Positions 33,511 through 51,845 are shown, numbered from the stretch's first letter. The stretch is DNA of 64,000 nucleotides from an uncultured bacterium (GCA_963823885.1 CAWGNL010000060.1:576-64575), one strand, 5' to 3'. Made by a program: numbers and translations. The notes: generated by a model from the letters alone, not told the origin.

Positions 33511-34781
33511 TCCTGCTCCATCTTCCTCATCACCAACCCGCTCAGGAGCTTGGGATAGAAGTAGGTAGCTTTCTGAGGCATCATCTCCCCCGCGCCGGCT
33601 GATGTCCATGACCGATTTCACCGCGATTCGGTCCAGCAGGAAGGCAATTTGCCGGTTGCCGGAGTCGATCATATGTATTGCTTTATCGGCATCCCTGGTG
33701 TAGCGCACGTGCGCCTCGTGCCTGAGCTTCTCGTCGTCGATACCGAGCAATCTTTCCAATATGAGCGTGTGCAGGATGTTGACTCCAACTTGGTGCATGC
33801 CTCGCATCCGTCCACCAATTCGAACACGCCCGGCTTGGGAATCAGCACCTTCGCATCACCGTTGCGATACATGCCGATGCCCCTGATTCTCTCCACATCG
33901 CTCACCAGAGCGTTCGCGGAAGACTCCACCAAATCGAAATGCTCCAACAGCCTGCTGTCCAGTTCGGCGAGCAAATCGTGGGCGATGCTGTCTATGACGC
34001 GGTGGGTCGAGAGGATTTCCAGATCTTTTTGAGAAGCGTTGACGATAGTCATCAGCGTATAATCCGAAGGCTGCTCGCCGCGCTTGCTCCCGCGTCTCAT
34101 CCTGTTGCAATGGTTGAGGGCTGCTTCGTAACGATGATGCCCATCGGCAATGACGATCTGCCTGTCTTTGAGGAACCGTGTCACCAGGGCGATCTCAGAT
34201 GGGTCGCTGACCATCCGGAGGCTGTGCCGGACCCCGTCGCGGTCCACTACATCCGCCGCTGCCGGCGCGGCCGCCGGTCGGTCCATTACGGCGTCGATCT
34301 CACCCTGTGGATCATCGTACAGGCCATAGATGCTGTCGAGATTGGCGCTTGTCTGTTCGAGCGTGCTCCGCAAACCCGCTCTGGGTTTGGCCAGGGTATG
34401 TTCGTGCGGCAAGATAACCCTGTCCGAGTAGTCGTGCACCTTGACCGCGCAGGTAAAACCGCGAACGGTCTTGAAACTCCCATCGCGCTCGAAATGCTGA
34501 GCGTAGACATAGATCGCTGGCTCTTCGTCCTTCTTGAGCACGCCCTGTGCCAGCCAATCGGCAATGTAGCGCTTCGCCCGCGTGAACCGGTTCTCATCGT
34601 CGTCATCGTTCTCGAACTCCTCGCCCAGTATGAGCCGTACGAAGTTCCGCGGATGAAGCTTGTGATAGTAGACCCGGTCCTCGGGAGAAATAATGTCGTA
34701 AGGCGGACTGACGACCTTGCCCAGATCCCCCACTACCGACTGGTCGTAACGAACCCCCGTAAACGGTGCAATCTCAGCCAA
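33507..34781 (-). CDS. DUF1015-family protein (2 or more frameshifts)
   Basis: [13 protein letters not shown]..., [12 protein letters not shown], and C-terminal [18 protein letters not shown]. The tail [27 protein letters not shown] is in a third frame and ends at TGA 33507-33509, overlapping the next ATG (ATGA). Confidence 0.8.
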
Positions 34782-34815
34782 TGCTCGACTCCTCCGAAAA
34801 TAGCTTATAGCAGAT

Positions 34816-34877
34816 GTTTCGGGATTTTCGCCTAGCCTGGCTCGTCGAAGCTGATCAGCCCGAAATCCCGAAACATC
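34816..34877 (+). repeat. REPIN-B variant
   Basis: gtttcgggattttcgcc ... gcccgaaatcccgaaacatc. Confidence 0.75.
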
Positions 34878-35009
34878 GGGGAAAGCGGAAAGCCCGGAAC
34901 TTCCGTCCCGCGCATTCGCAACGCCCCCAGGCGGCGACTTTGAGAATAGCCACCTCCGGACCCCCGCTGGATTTACGGATCCGGCGGAACCCCCTATCGA
35001 GGCTCTACC

Positions 35010-35020
35010 ATTATATCACA
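35010..35020 (-). promoter_or_regulatory. Putative extended -10 promoter (TGTGATATAAT) facing the DUF1015 operon
   Basis: The reverse complement of attatatcaca is tgtgaTATAAT (TGn plus a perfect -10). The same 11-mer recurs at 52291-52301. No good -35 is present. Confidence 0.35.
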
Positions 35021-35069
35021 GTGACGCAAGTCAGGGGTCAACCCGTAACATCTCAGTCTTTGGGAATTC

Positions 35070-35178
35070 GGAACCCGCCAGCCCTGAGTGCCGAGCGCAA
35101 GCGAGGCGTACCGAAGGGCGGTCTCCAATGCGGCCATTTCGACCCGGTCCACAAACCGGACCTACTCAGCATTGGCGG
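35070..35178. repeat. Family-D palindromic element (ggaacccgccagccctgagt ... actcagcattggcgg)
   Basis: Related copies at 58125-58235 and, shorter, at 46348-46406. Confidence 0.8.
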
Positions 35179-35182
35179 AGTG

Positions 35183-36300
35183 CAGGTGTTTCGGGAATCT
35201 TGTTCCCGAAACTAAGTGCGTATCGGGAACAAGATTCCCGATACACCGGCAAGAATACTATCAGCCATTTATGCAAGTAGGCACTAGATCCCCTATCGAC
35301 ACGTTGGTGAGGGCTTCGGGCCGCAGCTGAACTCTTGGGCGATTTGCAGGCGGCAATCGGATGGACCGGCCGTAAGCGATACGGCGTGCTTGCGCGAGAC
35401 GACAATACGCGGTGCAGGTGTTTCGGGAATCTTGTTCCCGAAACTAAGTGCGTATCGGGAACAAGATTCCCGATACACCGGCAAGCCACGACACTGATTG
35501 CGTGCGCAGCCGCGTGCTGCGTGGCGATGTGCGCCAGCAGCACAGGGCGGGCCGATTGCAGGTGTTTCGGGAATCTTGTTCCCGAAACTAAGTGCGTATC
35601 GGGAACAAGATTCCCGATACACCGGCAAGCCACGACACTGATTGCGTGCGCAGCCGCGTGCTGCGTGGCGATGTGCGCCAGCAGCACAGGGCGGGCCGAT
35701 TGCAGGTGTTTCGGGAATCTTGTTCCCGAAACTAAGTGCGTATCGGGAACAAGATTCCCGATACACCGGCAAGAATACTATCAGCCATTTATGCAAGTAG
35801 GCACTAGATCCCCTATCGACACGTTGGTGAGGGCTTCGGGCCGCAGGCTGAACTCTTGGGCGATTTGCAGGCGGCAATCGGATAGACCCGCCGTAAGCGA
35901 TACGGCGTGCTTGCGCGAGACGACAATACGCGGTGCAGGTGTTTCGGGAATCTTGTTCCCGAAACTAAGTGCGTATCGGGAACAAGATTCCCGATACACC
36001 GGCAAGCCACGACACTGATTGCGTGCGCAGCCGCGTGCTGCGTGGCGATGTGCGCCAGCAGCACAGGGCGGGCCGATTGCAGGTGTTTCGGGAATCTTGT
36101 TCCCGAAACTAAGTGCGTATCGGGAACAAGATTCCCGATACACCGGCAAGAATACTATCAGCCATTTATGCAAGTAGGCACTAGATCCCCTATCGACACG
36201 TTGGTGAGGGCTTCGGGCCGCAGCCGAACTCTTGGGCGATTTGCAGGCGGCAATCGGATGGACCGGCCGTAAGCGATACGGCGTGCTTGCGCGAATAGGC
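35183..36300. repeat. REPIN array: six REPIN-A' copies separated by two recurring spacers (A about 165 bp, B about 77 bp) in the order R-A-R-B-R-B-R-A-R-B-R-A
   Basis: REPINs start near 35183, 35413, 35556, 35700, 35935 and 36078. Spacers repeat almost exactly. All ORFs called here translate the repeats. Confidence 0.9.
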
Positions 36301-36545
36301 AGTGGATTCGACGACTGCGTCGAGCATGCGAGTTTGCTCTGAGGCAACGAGACCCCCGCCGCGCCTTGTTGCCCGATGCCCGGAAGGCGCGGCTCGCGGG
36401 TTCCCTTCCGGCCTTGGAGGGGACCTTCTGCTCCCCACCTCTTCCTAATCTGGACCAAGCGCGCCAGGCCGCAGAGCAGACCGACAACGGAAGCCGGCTC
36501 GGGCGGATGCAGACCATGCCTTCTCTGCCTGGCAGAAGGTGCCAG

Positions 36546-36612
36546 GCGTGCAGCGGGAACTCGAAGGGCTTCATTCCGAGAATTGTCTCTACTTGTCGTT
36601 CCCACCGCATAG
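36546..36612 (-). repeat. Family-F repeat (reverse complement of 55811-55877)
   Basis: gcgtgcagcgggaactcgaaggg...gtctctacttgtcgttcccaccgcatag compared with ctatgcggcgggaacgacaagtcgagac...cttcgagttcccgctgcacgc. Confidence 0.75.
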
Positions 36613-36759
36613 GTGGCTCCCGTTCTCGTGAAGGCTGAGCTCTTACGGCGCTGATTGGCGCGGCGCATTGACGCCACACGGGTTCGGTGGTACACTGATG
36701 ACGGACCATGTTGGAGTAGCGCGGGTCGCAATGCCCATCGAGAGATGGCTGCCGGACGA

Positions 36760-38444
36760 ATGTTCCATATCAAGCAGGCTAGGCCTTCCGCATTCAAAGG
36801 GAGCGGCTGCGCGGACCTCGAACTTGGAACCGCTGTGCCAATCCGCAAGAAAGAGAGTCCTTCGCACGTGGCCAAACGAAAACGCGCTAGAAACCAAGCC
36901 CAGGGGATTACCGCGCCCGATCCCTATCAACGGAAGACGCTCAAGAGCGTCCCGGTCGCTCAAGAATACTGGCCCCTTGCCACCATCATAGTGCTCGCAT
37001 CGGTGCTAATGTTTGCGAACCTGGGCAACCAGTCCCTCTGGGAGGACGAGGCGGAAACCGCGCTCCTGGCCAAGACGGTGTTGACACACGGGGTTCCACT
37101 CGATACAGATGGAAGGAACTTTTTCTCAGTAAAAGCAGGTGCGGACTACGACAAAAAGAGCCACATGCACAAGTGGCATCCGTGGCTCCAGTTTTACCTG
37201 GCTGCCGCTTCGTTCGCTGTTTTGGGGCCCACCACTCTGGCCGCGAGGCTTCCGTTTACGCTCTTCGGCGTAGGTACCTGCGTCCTGATGTACTTTTTTG
37301 GGCGCCGAATGCTCGGAAGCCGGCGCGCTGGCGTGGTGGCGGCGCTGCTTGTCCTGGCAAGCGTTCCCTTTCTTCTCCTGGTCAGGCAGTGCCGTTACTA
37401 TAGCTTGGACGTATTCTTTGCTACCCTGGGACTCTATGGCTACTACAATATGTTGGAGAAGCGAAAGTGGTCGGGTCTCACGTTCTTCCTGGGAGCCTTC
37501 TTCCTGTTTCACTCGCATTATCTGCATTGCGCGGTGCTGTTGGGCACCGTGACGCTGCACAGCCTGATCTGGCGTCGGGACAGGTTGCTTGCGGTGGCGG
37601 CGGTGTCCGGACTGGTTGGCCTCCTCAACGTGCCGTGGATTATATGGTTTGCCGGAATGGCCCAGCAAATGAAAGCACACGGCACGCCGCTGCATCGGCT
37701 GCAGACCTCCGGGCCTGCGCTTGTCACAAAGTTCGAACGGTTCATATTCCCACCACTGGCTTTGATCCTGGTCGTTCCGACGGTGATCGCGAGTTGGGCG
37801 AGGAGCGCCGATTCCCCAGACCAGACAGAAAAGCGGTCCAGGATGTTTCTCTTTTGCTGCTGTTCATCACGACCAACGTCCTGGCCCATGCCCTGACCAT
37901 CGGTGACCCGTTGCTTAGATATCTCGCGCCCGTTATCCCAGCGGCGCTGCTTCTTATGACCATGGCGATTTATTCTTCCATGAGGCTGCACATAACGATC
38001 GGCATCGTCGCGATCGCGGTTTTGGCTTTTGCTATGCGGATGCCTGATTACGCGTACGAAATAACCCATGATCTCCGTTGGCCCGTGGACGGGATCGTTA
38101 AATACCTGAATGAGCAGGGCAAGCCTTCAGACGTGGTGGCGATAACCTACAGCGACCTGCCACTGAAGTTCTACACAAAGATGCGGGTTGTCGGCGGGAC
38201 GTCGGGCGAAGACCCGTCTCCCATAAAGAACGCCCAATGGATCATACTTCGCAAATACGTGAATGGCCCTGAATTGATCCCGGTAATCAACTACATGCGC
38301 CACAACATTGACGCCACGAAATACGAGCGCATACAATTGGACTACCCGGATACGCCCTGGGAGAATAGCGAAGACCCCGCCTTCCATAATTACCGGACTG
38401 CCTACGGCGAAAGCCCGGTTGTTATATACCGCAGGATTTTGTAG
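36760..38444 (+). CDS. GT-C fold membrane glycosyltransferase, ArnT/PMT_2-like (GT39/GT83 type), paralog 1 (frameshift near 37860; start uncertain)
   Basis: Multi-TM protein with the first-loop acidic motif NQSLWEDEAETALLAKT. The pieces are 36655..37896 and 37467..38444. It aligns residue-by-residue with 40191..41813. Confidence 0.7.
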
Positions 38445-38511: not shown

Positions 38512-39289
38512 TCACTCAGACTGGTTGTTTTTCCTCCGTGTGTTCCTGCCCCTCATTATCGTTCCGCCCAGGCCGGCGATGCCGCACAGAAGGGCGGGAG
38601 TAGTTGAAGGTTCAGGAACCGTGTCGAGGGTTATGGCAGATACGAATAGCCCAGGACTGGCGTTATTCAGCAACTGCCGGGACTCGTCTAGGATCGTGAT
38701 CTCAGTGACCGGGGAACTGGTGTTAAGGCTGAGGGTGAGCATGTCGATGGAGGCCGGCTCATAGAGCCACGGGGCCTGGCTTGTGCCCGTCCAGACTGCG
38801 GACACGTTAGGGCCTGTTGTAGTTCCAACCTTCCCGGCGGCAATAACCCAATCCCTAATGTTGTAACCCACGGTCAAGGCAAACGAGTTAACCGTTGCAT
38901 TGGCATAGGTCACATTAATGTAGCCCATAATGCAGTTATTATAAGCGACCGAGACATCCGTTCCATCGATAAGTACATATGCCGTCTTAGCGTTGCCCAG
39001 ATTACCGGACAAAACCCCGGTCGTAGGTCCACCCAGTCCGTAACCGCTATCCTCGGTGAAAAGGACATTCGACCCTTGGGGTGAGATGTAAAACGGAACG
39101 CCGCCCAAAGTCACCGAGCCGGTGGGCGGTGACTCGTAGTACACCGATAGTGATGAGTTAGCAATCGTAGAGATTGGCACGGACTCGAACGAATCGGCCC
39201 GCCCTGCGCTGCCGTGCGCACATCGCCACCCAGCACGCGGCTGCGCACGCAATCAGTGTCGTGGTTTTCATTGTTTTCATTGCTTTCAT
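38512..39289 (-). CDS. PEP-CTERM sorting-domain protein (frameshift near 39200)
   Basis: C-terminus VPEPSTTPALLCGIAGLGGTIMRGRNTRRK (PEP motif, TM segment, basic tail). The start ATG at 39289 follows aaggag, giving signal peptide MKAMKTMKTTTLIACAAACWVAMCA. Confidence 0.75.
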
Positions 39290-39395
39290 TTTTCTTTCTC
39301 CTTAGCTCCTTTTCGAGCTTACTATGATGTGGTACATCACATGGTCGCGTGCTTAACCAAGTCCCCCCTCGTACCGTGAAATGGGCGAGGTGAAC

Positions 39396-39710
39396 CTATC
39401 TCTTTCTAAGCCAGACGATGCCTCCTAAACCGCGGAGCAGGCCGACAACGGATGCGGGCTCGGGGACTGCCTGGACCGATATATAGTCAACGTCGAGAGA
39501 CGTCCAACTGAATCCACCGGGGACCGTGACTGAGTTGCCGATAGAAATTACCCGTGGGCCCTGGCGGTCGCAACGGTGCTCTGGAAAACCCCGTCCAAAT
39601 ACCGCGTTGAGTGAACTGAAGTCATCGTAAAACGCCAGCACAGCCGAACTACAGGCAGCCAGGGCGATGACGAACAAGCACGACACACAAGCTCGTACAA
39701 CCGCGTTCAT
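39396..39710 (-). CDS. Small PEP-CTERM sorting-domain protein
   Basis: 104 aa with a signal peptide and C-terminal VPEPASVVGLLRGLGGIVWLRKR. RBS ggagg lies upstream of the ATG at 39710. Confidence 0.7.
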   Translation of the reverse strand: MNAVVRACVSCLFVIALAACSSAVLAFYDDFSSLNAVFGRGFPEHRCDRQGPRVISIGNSVTVPGGFSWTSLDVDYISVQAVPEPASVVGLLRGLGGIVWLRKR

Positions 39711-39888: not shown

Positions 39889-40105
39889 AAGCGCATTATT
39901 CACGTAGCGCGTGTTTGCCCAGCACTTCGTGCTCCCCTCGCCCTCACGGGAGAGGGGCTGGGGGTGAGGGTGGAACGCCGCGCTCGATGAGCTTGTGCCT
40001 GATTGCAGCGTTTCCCCCTCACCCCAACCCTCTCCCATCCGGGAGAGGGAGCACGTGGGTGCCTGAACCAAGAGGCTCGTCTACCAATTCACGAATAATG
40101 CGGGC
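39889..40105 (-). repeat. Family-G element, full copy with terminal inverted repeats (gcgcattattcacg / cgtgaataatgcgggc)
   Basis: The internal long hairpin cccctcgccctcacgggagaggggctgggggtgagggtgg ... ccccctcaccccaaccctctcccatccgggagaggg matches 26176-26352 in reverse orientation. Confidence 0.85.
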
Positions 40106-40190: not shown

Positions 40191-41813
40191 ATGAAGACAC
40201 AATCGAACAGGTCAAAGAAGACCGACGCACTCCCAAGAAAACAATCCGTTTCGGGAAAGGGGTTTCCCGAAGCAACTGAACAGTCCAAACGCCGCGGCAA
40301 GTTACCCTCCTGGCTGCCGGTGCTTCCTATCGCGATCGTCGCCTCGATCCTGATATTCTCCAATCTTGGAGACTCCAGCCTCTGGCAGGATGAAGCCGAA
40401 ACGGCGCTCGTCTCCAGGACCATCCTCACCCACGGAATCCCCCTCGGCTACGATGGGAAGAACTACTTCTCACAGCAGTTCGGCAAAGACACCAGCAATA
40501 ACCACGCTTGGAAATGGCACCCGTGGCTTCCGTTCTATGTGCTCGCCGGGTTCTTCGCGGTGCTCGGGATTAGCACGTTTGTCGCGAGGTTGCCGTTCGC
40601 GCTTTTTGGGCTGGGGACTGTTATACTCACCTATTTCTATGCGTTGACAATGTTCCGAAGCAGGCGGCTCGCCGTCTTTTCGGCCGCTGTTCTGGCCACA
40701 TCCATCCCGTTTCTCCTGCTTGCCCGGCAGTGCCGCTACTACGCCCCGGATATGTTCTTCTCCGTGCTGACCCTTTATGCCTATGACAATTTCCTCGAAT
40801 CCAAAGAGCGTTCGGACGTCGGCCTGTTCATATCGGCTACGTTGTTGTTCCACGTGGAGGACGTTCACTGCGCGGTGGTTTTGCTGGCGGCACTGGGGCA
40901 TTGCCTTCTACTCAGGCGCGACAAGTCACTTGCGCTGGGCCGGATATGCGTATGCATAGTCGCGGCGAATGCGCCCTGGATCTTTCGGGCTCCACCGGGC
41001 GGCTCAGGCGCTGGATTTCGGTCCCGCCGCCGCATGGCGAAGAGCCATGACGTTCATAGGGTTCGTTGTCTACTTTCCTGTGCGAAAGCGTTTTCCCCTG
41101 CTTGGGCTGTGGCTGCTCGTGCCCGCCGGGGGTTGCCGCACTCTCCAGGCGGCATCACGGGAAGCGGCTCATTATCGCGGACGCCCAGCCATTGCAGGCG
41201 GTCGCTATGCTCGGCGTGTTTGTGGCGCTCAGCATAGTGGTCAACGCTATCGCTTCGCAGGCTGCGTTCTTTGGGGTACGCTGGCCCCGGCTGTTCCGGT
41301 GTGCTGCATAATTGTTGGGCTCGTCATCAACTCGGTGGCGGAGATTCACCTGGGCCTGGGCCTGGCTGCATTCGCCGTCCTGATCTGCCTCAGCCCAATG
41401 AACGATTATCTCTATGAGATAACGCATCACTACTATGGCCCCATCGATGGGATCGTCAAGTTTCTCAACAAGAACGCACGGCCGGGCGATACCGTCGCAA
41501 TCACCTACGAGGATCTGCCCCTCAAGTCTACACCAACCTCAGGGTCGTGGGCGGACTGACCGGCGAGGACCTGTCTTCGGCGGGTAGCGCTAGATGGATC
41601 ATCCCAAAAAAGGCTAGTGGCCCCGAGACCCGCGCGGCACTGGCTTACCTGACCGGCCTAATACGCGAGCACCCATCGGACTACATGAAGATCGTCCTGG
41701 ACTGCCCGGACACCCCGTTCCAGAACCGCGAGGACCCGGACCAGCACTACTACAGAACCGATCAACACGCGGACCCGGTCACGATTACGAACGATGGCGA
41801 AGTTCAGTCATAA
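40191..41813 (+). CDS. GT-C fold membrane glycosyltransferase, ArnT/PMT_2-like, paralog 2 (2 or more frameshifts)
   Basis: DSSLWQDEAETALVSRT. The pieces are 40191..41237, 40969..41559 and 41547..41813. The C-terminal ...LDCPDTPFQNREDPDQHYYRT parallels ...LDYPDTPWENSEDPAFHNYRT of paralog 1. Confidence 0.7.
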
Positions 41814-51112: not shown

Positions 51113-51845
51113 ATGTCATTCCGAACGAACGTGAGGAATCTCGACCTATCGGTTGACTCTCACATACCGAAGGATGATACAGGCGCAACGTTGAGATTCC
51201 TCACATTCGTTCCTAAGAAACTCTCTTCGGAGGAGCGCGGAAGCTGCTTAATGCAGAGGGCACTAGTGTCTACTTGCATAAATAGCTAATAGTATTCTTG
51301 CCGGTGTATCGGGAATCTTGTTCCCGATACGCACTTAGTTTCGGGAACAAGATTCCCGAAACACCCGTTACAGCATTCTATCAATCAATTATGCAACTAA
51401 GCACTAGCACAACGATTACGTCATCCTGAGCAAGTGACCTCGGCGTTGCCGGTGTATCGGGAATCTTGTTCCCGATACGCACTTAGTTTCGGGAACAAGA
51501 TTCCCGAAACACCGGGGGTGGGTTTCTGCCGGTGTATCGGGAATCTTGTTCCCGATACGCACTTAGTTTCGGGAACAAGATTCCCGAAACACCGGGGGTG
51601 GGTTTCTTTCCAATGTAACCGCGGCAACGCCGCGGTCACTTGCTCCTAAGAAACTCCCCAGTTTCGGGAACAAGATTCCCGAAACACCGGGGGTGGGTTT
51701 CTTTCCAATGTAACCGCGGCAACGCCGAGGTCACTTGCTCCTAAGAAACTCCCCAGTTTCGGGAACAAGATTCCCGAAACACCGGGGGTGGGTTTCTTTC
51801 CAATGTAACGGCGACAGCGTCGCCGTCACTTGCTCGGAATGACAT
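51113..51845. repeat. Nest of repeats: a 207-bp-type element interrupted by three REPIN-A' copies (51299, 51448, 51528) and extended by two extra array-type units
   Basis: The left TIR atgtcattccgaacgaacg is at 51113 and the right TIR cacttgctcggaatgacat ends at 51845. The 60 bp beyond it (gatttacgacggctgtggcagaaccagcaccgcgcctcactgtgggatggtagtgaac) also follows the array at 2486-2545. Confidence 0.85.

Follow-up and report, generated by a model that had tools for sequence, protein, structure and literature searches.

The array at positions 35181-36150 of the window, the 64,000-nucleotide stretch of DNA that was analysed, consists of six identical REP doublets (REPINs) separated by two kinds of spacer, one of which, spacer B, reproduces in inverted orientation the part of a PEP-CTERM protein gene, about 3 kb away, that encodes the signal peptide. 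Repeat clusters of this kind are known, but the array is an unusual example, and nothing in it points to a new system or a function. The reading preferred here, held with moderate confidence, is that a piece of the nearby gene was copied from a template into an already existing REPIN cluster and then amplified between the identical REPINs, in a history of four steps.

Organization of the array

Searches for exact matches located six copies of one 73-nt REP doublet (Table 1), with a mutual identity of 100% across all six units. The doublet runs from TGCAGGTG to ACCGGCAAG and is laid out as TGCAGGTGTTTCGGGAATCTTGTTCCCGAAAC-TAAGTGC-GTATCGGGAACAAGATTCCCGATACACCGGCAAG, in which the two REP hairpins are inverted relative to each other; its arms of 32-33 nt are 91% complementary. 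As single-stranded DNA, the doublet folds into one long hairpin of -31.2 kcal/mol (z = -12.3 compared with shuffled sequences). The window contains 57 matches to the 25-nt REP core, GTTTCGGGAATCTTGTTCCCGAAAC, where 0 would be expected. Rfam searches of the REPIN hairpins gave only generic hits below the threshold, to miRNA models, and no known RNA family matched the array above the threshold. A long palindromic element of a different family is located at 39922-40063 of the window, and its Rfam matches are generic miRNA-hairpin models far below the threshold.

The REPINs share the same boundaries at both ends. The right boundary, GGCAAG/ (the slash marks the boundary), is found in 6 of 6 units, whatever comes next, and the left boundary, T/GCAGGTG, is found in 6 of 6 units, whether the left flank repeat X, spacer A or spacer B precedes. 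The left boundary is non-canonical; many REPINs of the genome lie within a MITE-like element of ~146 nt, the canonical left arm of which ends with ...GTA/GCAGGTG. The presence of the same non-canonical left boundary in all six REPINs, including both REPINs flanking spacer B, suggests that they are copies of one REPIN rather than independent insertions.

The spacers follow the order A-B-B-A-B-A, in agreement with the preliminary description, in which six REPIN copies alternated with two recurring spacers and spacer B occurred three times. The three B copies of 71 nt are 100% identical, and the A copies of 159-160 nt are 98-99% identical, differing at 1-4 positions. Tandem Repeats Finder reported the unit of a REPIN and spacer B (R-B) with a period of 144 nt, 2.5 copies and 100% identity. 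With its six identical REPINs and the repetition of both R-B and R-A units, the array is a tandem REPIN cluster of the ordered type. It contains exact repeats of 260-360 nt; thus the number and the order of its units, which are given as in one MAG assembly, depend entirely on that assembly.

Table 1 Positions in the window of the array units, their flanks and the donor gene
Feature	Position	Strand	Description
Left flank repeat X	35044-35180	+	~137-nt dispersed family; 3' end abuts the first REPIN
REPIN 1	35181-35253	+	Exact matches; inverted arms
REPIN copies 2-6	35413-35485, 35557-35629, 35701-35773, 35934-36006, 36078-36150	+	Identical to REPIN 1
Spacer A1	35254-35412	+	Right arm, locus-specific DNA and GACGACAATACGCGG
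Spacer A2	35774-35933	+	Aligned with A1 and A3
Spacer A3	36151-36294	+	Right arm and locus-specific DNA, unbroken into the unique right flank 36295-36433
Spacer B1	35486-35556	+	Inverted copy of the donor segment; reads ..TTLIACAAACCVAMCASSTGRAD on the plus strand
Spacers B2, B3	35630-35700; 36007-36077	+	Identical to B1
PEP-CTERM sorting-tail relic	36434-36503	-	22 aa, PEPASVVGLLCGLARLVQIRKR, no stop codon after; 130 nt right of the array
PEP-CTERM protein gene	38512-39289	-	Only copy in the genome; body ORF 38512-39252
Donor segment	39192-39267	-	Codons ~9-33 (signal peptide) of the PEP-CTERM gene; one base more than spacer B

Counted from the G at 35253 that is common to the REPIN end, the first 35 nt of spacer A (GAATACTATCAGCCATTTATGCAAGTAGGCACTAG) are the right arm of the ~146-nt REPIN-carrying element, which is arranged as CTAGTGCTTAGTTGCATAA..left arm..REPIN..right arm..TTATGCAAGTAGGCACTAG, with the ends CTAGTG...CACTAG. 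The preliminary description had placed the sequence of spacer A at a second site on the other strand, and these first 35 nt are indeed found at 51263-51297 with 91% identity. The motif is not specific to this locus: the right arm has about 150 copies in the genome, which explains the second occurrence. Beyond the right arm, spacer A consists of ~110 nt of locus-specific DNA, followed in the internal copies (A1 and A2) by the 15 nt GACGACAATACGCGG, for which no source was found. BLAST against the genome located this remainder of ~125 nt only at the array locus, three times. Spacer A3 departs from A1 and A2 after ..GCTTGCGCGA and runs straight into unique sequence without other copies in the genome, indicating that the arrangement of REPIN, A3 and flank is probably that of the original element with its host flank. 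The co-amplified spacer A is DNA adjoining the REPIN at this locus, as A3 continues into the unique flank. This is not so for spacer B, the sole other copy of which is ~3 kb away and inverted.

Spacer B and the PEP-CTERM gene

Alignment of spacer B with the reverse complement of the donor segment showed 71 matches over 76 positions, with 4 substitutions and 1 gap (93% identity), close to the ~90% identity with the opposite strand of the gene 5' region that had been estimated before. BLAST against the 5.05-Mb assembly matched spacer B only to the three array copies and the donor gene (E = 1e-24). The alignment score of 58 compares with 8.8±1.4 (maximum 16) for 1000 dinucleotide-preserving shuffles of spacer B, which excludes a low-complexity, GC-rich similarity; together with the BLAST result of four copies, composition was ruled out as the cause of the match. 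Both BLAST and the alignment bear out that the fragment is from the signal-peptide region of a PEP-CTERM gene 3 kb away on the opposite strand, as had been proposed. The distance from the donor to the array is about 3.1-3.8 kb. With a genome size of at least 5 Mb, the chance that a randomly placed donor lies within 4 kb is about 0.2%.

The donor gene has the features of a PEP-CTERM protein gene, with a sorting domain (TIGR02595, 16.6 bits, cut-off 16), a signal peptide, which is out of frame with the body in the assembly, and two matches to exosortase PF09721 in the genome. The gene had been drawn at 38512-39289. These 778 nt do not form a single reading frame: within the stretch homologous to spacer B, the frame of the signal peptide (MKAMKTMKTTTLIACAAACWVAMCARQ...stop) is offset by one base from that of the body (..HGSAGRADSFESVPIS..), and the body is not in the frame of the signal peptide and of the ATG-rich start (39263-39289). 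The deposited gene call (P0001) begins downstream at MPISTIAN.., without the signal peptide. The gene start at 39263-39289 (minus strand) is made up of three tandem 9-nt units, ATGAAAGCA ATGAAAACA ATGAAAACC (MKA MKT MKT), a slippage-type triplication of the start codon region.

The nearest protein homolog, P0002, is a 56% identical metagenome protein encoded on a 986-nt contig, and G024 is a 41% identical gene in a family-level relative; among 40 relatives, the best homolog of the gene is 41% identical. In both P0002 and G024, the conserved xxVxIxxIAN region is immediately preceded by an N-terminal signal peptide. The homologs' own, unrelated signal peptides at the same position indicate that the segment is native to the gene and that the B copies in the array are secondary. 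No paralog of the gene body was found in the assembly by tblastn, which matched only the gene itself and generic PEP-CTERM tails; a paralog elsewhere was thus ruled out as the source of spacer B.

Spacer B lacks the extra base of the gene, reads TTLIACAAACCVAMCASSTGRAD in one frame and would join correctly to ..SFESVPIS. Since spacer B keeps the signal-peptide and the mature-protein frames joined, whereas the gene has an extra base, spacer B may be a record of an earlier intact, in-frame state of the gene, or else the extra base of the gene may be a local assembly error. A global indel error was rejected as the cause of the frameshift in the gene, as the ORF lengths look normal genome-wide (open frames of at least 300 aa cover 51% of the bases), indicating that the assembly is not generally error-ridden; a real change and a local error both remain. 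The REPINs and the B copies are each 100% identical among themselves, whereas spacer B differs from the gene by 6.6%, indicating that the amplification is younger than the capture. Spacer B has 5 differences from the gene and, within 71 nt, borders on REPIN sequence at both ends; thus a REPIN-flanked second copy of the segment must exist in the sampled population. The existence of this second copy is robust, whatever the length of the array.

The array in its genome

The host genome is a 129-contig Armatimonadota MAG of 69% completeness, with 1748 REP cores. The clusters with four or more cores number 136, most of them with repeated spacers, and the tally of cluster sizes is led by doublets (134) and singlets (125). 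The repeat has the characters of a REP family: it is a short, mostly extragenic and highly repeated palindrome and forms an inverted doublet folding into a long hairpin. A search with PF01797 gave 58 matches, corresponding to about 58 RAYT-type Y1 transposase reading frames, and a representative of these scores 87.7 bits (cut-off 80) with NF047646, 'REP-associated tyrosine transposase'. Some of the RAYT genes are flanked by closely related REP hairpins (a 23-nt variant), such as the gene at C28:41417-41956, which is flanked by GTTTCGGGAAC-TTGTTCCCGAAAC hairpins. RAYTs are described as typically single-copy per REPIN family, domesticated and non-selfish (10.1101/119735), whereas the ~58 copies here point to a transposase behaving like a multi-copy insertion sequence. 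Except for this multi-copy transposase, the genome fits the REP/REPIN-RAYT kind. Contigs begin and end in REPIN arrays, and many arrays with distinct higher-order patterns are resolved in the assembly.

A survey of all 450 distinct inter-REP spacers from the clusters of the genome assigned 356 to other repeat families and 44 to purely local sequence. Spacer B is the only one of the 450 whose sole other copy is distal non-repeat DNA, and this single case speaks against a regular capture process. Recurrent distal capture was rejected, as the other spacers with few hits are other hairpin-repeat families or adjacent host DNA, the latter in the REPIN array at C71:36367-37100. The host DNA repeated in the spacers of that array ends in a tRNA-like T-arm and acceptor (..GGTTCGAGTCCAGGAGGGGGAGCCA); a 58-nt copy of the tRNA-like sequence, 95% identical, is located at C120:4241-4298, and ARAGORN called a gene at neither site.

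Tandemly repeated REPIN clusters including flanking sequence have been reported in Pseudomonas fluorescens SBW25 (Bertels & Rainey 2011, PMC3116915). As in the SBW25 clusters, nearly identical REP doublets with long hairpins are arranged head-to-tail with flanking sequence in extragenic DNA, and RAYT-type transposase genes flanked by related REPs are present in both genomes. In contrast to the SBW25 clusters, the array has two different spacers in an irregular order, one of which copies, in inverted orientation, part of a gene 3 kb away rather than adjacent DNA. The array has six REPINs compared with four in the largest SBW25 cluster, and its genome has ~58 RAYT-type genes and 1748 REP cores compared with the single-copy RAYTs of SBW25 (PMC3116915).

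The array also resembles CRISPR arrays in that palindromic direct repeats alternate with spacers, one of which matches DNA elsewhere. However, the 73-nt repeat is dispersed genome-wide, also as singlets and doublets, the spacers of 71 and 159-160 nt are redundant (3 x A, 3 x B), the neighbours are a DUF1015 gene and a PMT_2 gene with no cas genes, and the 'protospacer' is the cell's own gene. A CRISPR array was ruled out by the redundant spacers, the dispersed repeat and the lack of cas neighbours, and the earlier interpretation of a gene 5' fragment co-amplified with a REPIN holds. Exact-pattern scans of other metagenome and genome contigs gave no match to the array, a protein-based metagenome scan was likewise negative, and no same-genus genome was found for the ancestral or empty site.

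Surroundings of the array

The array is located in a gap of 1.87 kb (34782-36654) between the DUF1015 gene and the PMT_2 glycosyltransferase gene, and the gap is filled with repeats. To the left of the array are a 72-nt repeat family and the 137-nt family X, and BLAST of the flank showed that the X family has at least about 20 copies of 85-96% identity on many contigs. The junction between the end of X and the REPIN (..ctactcagcattggcggag/t/gcaggtg) recurs inside a separate array of 8 units at C83:16311-17600, suggesting that blocks have been exchanged between arrays. The right flank at 36498-36647 belongs to a repeat family with more than 100 copies of 72-91% identity genome-wide.

In the DUF1015 gene (33516-34781, minus strand), which lies 400 nt to the left of the array, the reading frame is broken near 33800 and again near 33590, and the two breaks compensate each other. 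About 66 codons of the gene are out of frame with stops, as compared with 120 homologs of 416-448 aa, and the frame breaks are either real decay or local assembly error. The nearest DUF1015 neighbour is 77% identical and too distant for intergenic comparison.

Parts of the region are duplicated. The PMT_2 gene at 36995-38398 has 57% nucleotide identity to 40339-41758. The PEP-CTERM sorting-tail relic to the right of the array is 74% identical in nucleotides to 39395-39464 and 72.7% identical in amino acids to the tail of a 104-aa PEP-CTERM gene. Its identity to the donor gene of spacer B is 56%, and it is nearer to the small neighbouring PEP-CTERM gene (73% in amino acids). The unit of the small PEP-CTERM gene and PMT_2 is an old direct segmental duplication, the left small gene of which survives only as the tail.

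Origin of spacer B

The preferred history, templated copying followed by amplification, starts from an arrangement that is visible in the array, where a 5'-truncated ~146-nt element, made up of the REPIN and the right arm, adjoins locus-specific DNA and with it makes up the unit R-A. In the second step, R-A would already have been present in two or more copies, like dozens of other clusters in the genome. In the third step, during replication or repair of the hairpin-rich stretch at a stalled fork or a break, a nascent strand ending with ..GGCAAG at the 3' edge of a REPIN would have switched to a template on the opposite strand within the 5' end of the PEP-CTERM gene, at a distance of about 3.1-3.8 kb. 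About 70 nt would have been copied before the return to the start of the next REPIN (T/GCAGGTG), generating R-B-R, with B in the place of one whole A spacer. In the fourth step, to which the pattern of the units points, unequal crossing-over or slippage between the identical REPINs would have multiplied the units in two or more rounds; for example, A-B-A' could have changed to A-B-A-B-A' and then to A-B-B-A-B-A' in two events.

The constant REPIN boundaries indicate that spacer B replaces exactly one inter-REPIN spacer, including the right arm, and thus that spacer B entered an existing array. The proximity of the donor, the inversion, the 93% identity and the exact replacement of a spacer together favour templated copying. 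Template switching across a fork typically leaves an inverted copy, and a template switch was probably the copying route. The junction microhomology of 1-2 nt at each end of spacer B is uninformative. A recent inverted duplication of part of the gene, trimmed afterwards, would give the same end state as a template switch and is a possible route, and the template-switch model does not account for the 15 nt that end the internal A copies. The proposed event resembles template-switch and templated-insertion mutations (short-range, PMC7954356; proteobacterial inverted repeats, PMC5941160) in the short inverted copy of nearby DNA, the minimal junction homology and the hairpin-prone site. However, the donor in classical short-range switches lies within tens to hundreds of bases, compared with about 3 kb here; in addition, the copy was amplified afterwards, and the event is a reconstruction.

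The preliminary description had suggested that the locus may be a remnant of a disrupted PEP-CTERM paralog. In that case, a whole or partial copy of the PEP-CTERM gene on the plus strand would have received REPINs after codon ~8 and codon ~33, the rest would have been deleted and the remnant would have been amplified. In favour of this, the locus is within the old segmental duplication of PEP-CTERM and PMT_2 genes, with the tail relic close by, and other sites in the genome have armless REPINs that were inserted independently. However, a sensitive tblastn search of 34782-36654 showed no other fragment of the gene body, as every match besides spacer B and the tail relic has E > 0.1. Spacer B is inverted and 93% identical to its donor, whereas the local ancient duplicates are direct and 57-74% identical, and the tail relic resembles the small neighbouring gene rather than the donor of spacer B. 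In addition, both REPINs around spacer B share the non-canonical boundaries of the others, as expected for copies of one REPIN. Thus, a paralog relic is a rather doubtful source of spacer B.

It is improbable that the array, or the number and order of its units, is an artefact of assembly, produced by a mis-join or an expansion through the identical 73-nt repeats. The 129 contigs and 69% completeness of the MAG, the exact repeats of 260-360 nt and the contigs ending in such arrays would allow for an artefact, as would the nearby single-base frame breaks, two in the DUF1015 gene and one in the PEP-CTERM gene. However, the 5 differences between spacer B and the gene, together with the REPIN joined on both sides within 71 nt, argue against it, as do the normal ORF lengths genome-wide and the many arrays that are resolved with distinct higher-order patterns.

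Capture by a transposase, in which a RAYT would have used REP hairpins as cleavage sites and transferred or joined REP-B-REP as a composite, is quite improbable. Enzymes of the IS200/IS605 type move whatever lies between two recognised hairpins, the genome has ~58 RAYT-type genes, some with closely related flanking REP hairpins, and spacer B is bounded exactly by REPIN ends. However, the donor segment and its vicinity contain neither a REP nor a REP-like hairpin, the nearest core being 3148 nt away, and no common cleavage motif is visible at the ends of the B-homologous stretch in the gene. The single spacer of this kind among 450 would also be odd for an enzyme-driven process with 58 transposase copies.

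A functional element, with spacer B acting in trans on the PEP-CTERM gene as antisense RNA or with the 227-codon open frame across R-B-R-B (35335-36018) as a real repeat protein, is very unlikely: R+B of 144 nt equals 48 codons with the frame open through the REPINs, and a transcript of the minus strand would match codons ~9-33 of the mRNA of the gene with 93% complementarity, but 2 of the 3 frames of the REPIN are open, so that a long frame is expected by chance, spacer B has neither a start codon nor a ribosome-binding site, neither strand of the array or of its immediate flanks has a promoter-like site (the only one in the region, at 36668-36696, is outside the array), the REPINs are strong hairpins that each score terminator-like on the minus strand, and the metagenome and genome contig scans showed no conservation outside this genome. 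Most likely, the B copies do nothing.

Implications for REPIN clusters

The array shows that DNA from outside the immediate neighbourhood can be present within a REPIN cluster, and it is small evidence for hairpin repeats promoting local copying errors besides simple slippage. The B copy of the array may keep an earlier in-frame start of the gene that is now broken, which could help to date the decay of the gene. A speculative extension, with little probability of being right, is that in hairpin-saturated genomes the REPIN clusters act as hot spots that copy and multiply nearby gene pieces, by which the complete signal-peptide module, in an open frame with the REPINs, would have been duplicated and the copies might feed back as antisense or decoy RNA. 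If this were true, the clusters would provide a natural route for the duplication and spread of coding fragments.
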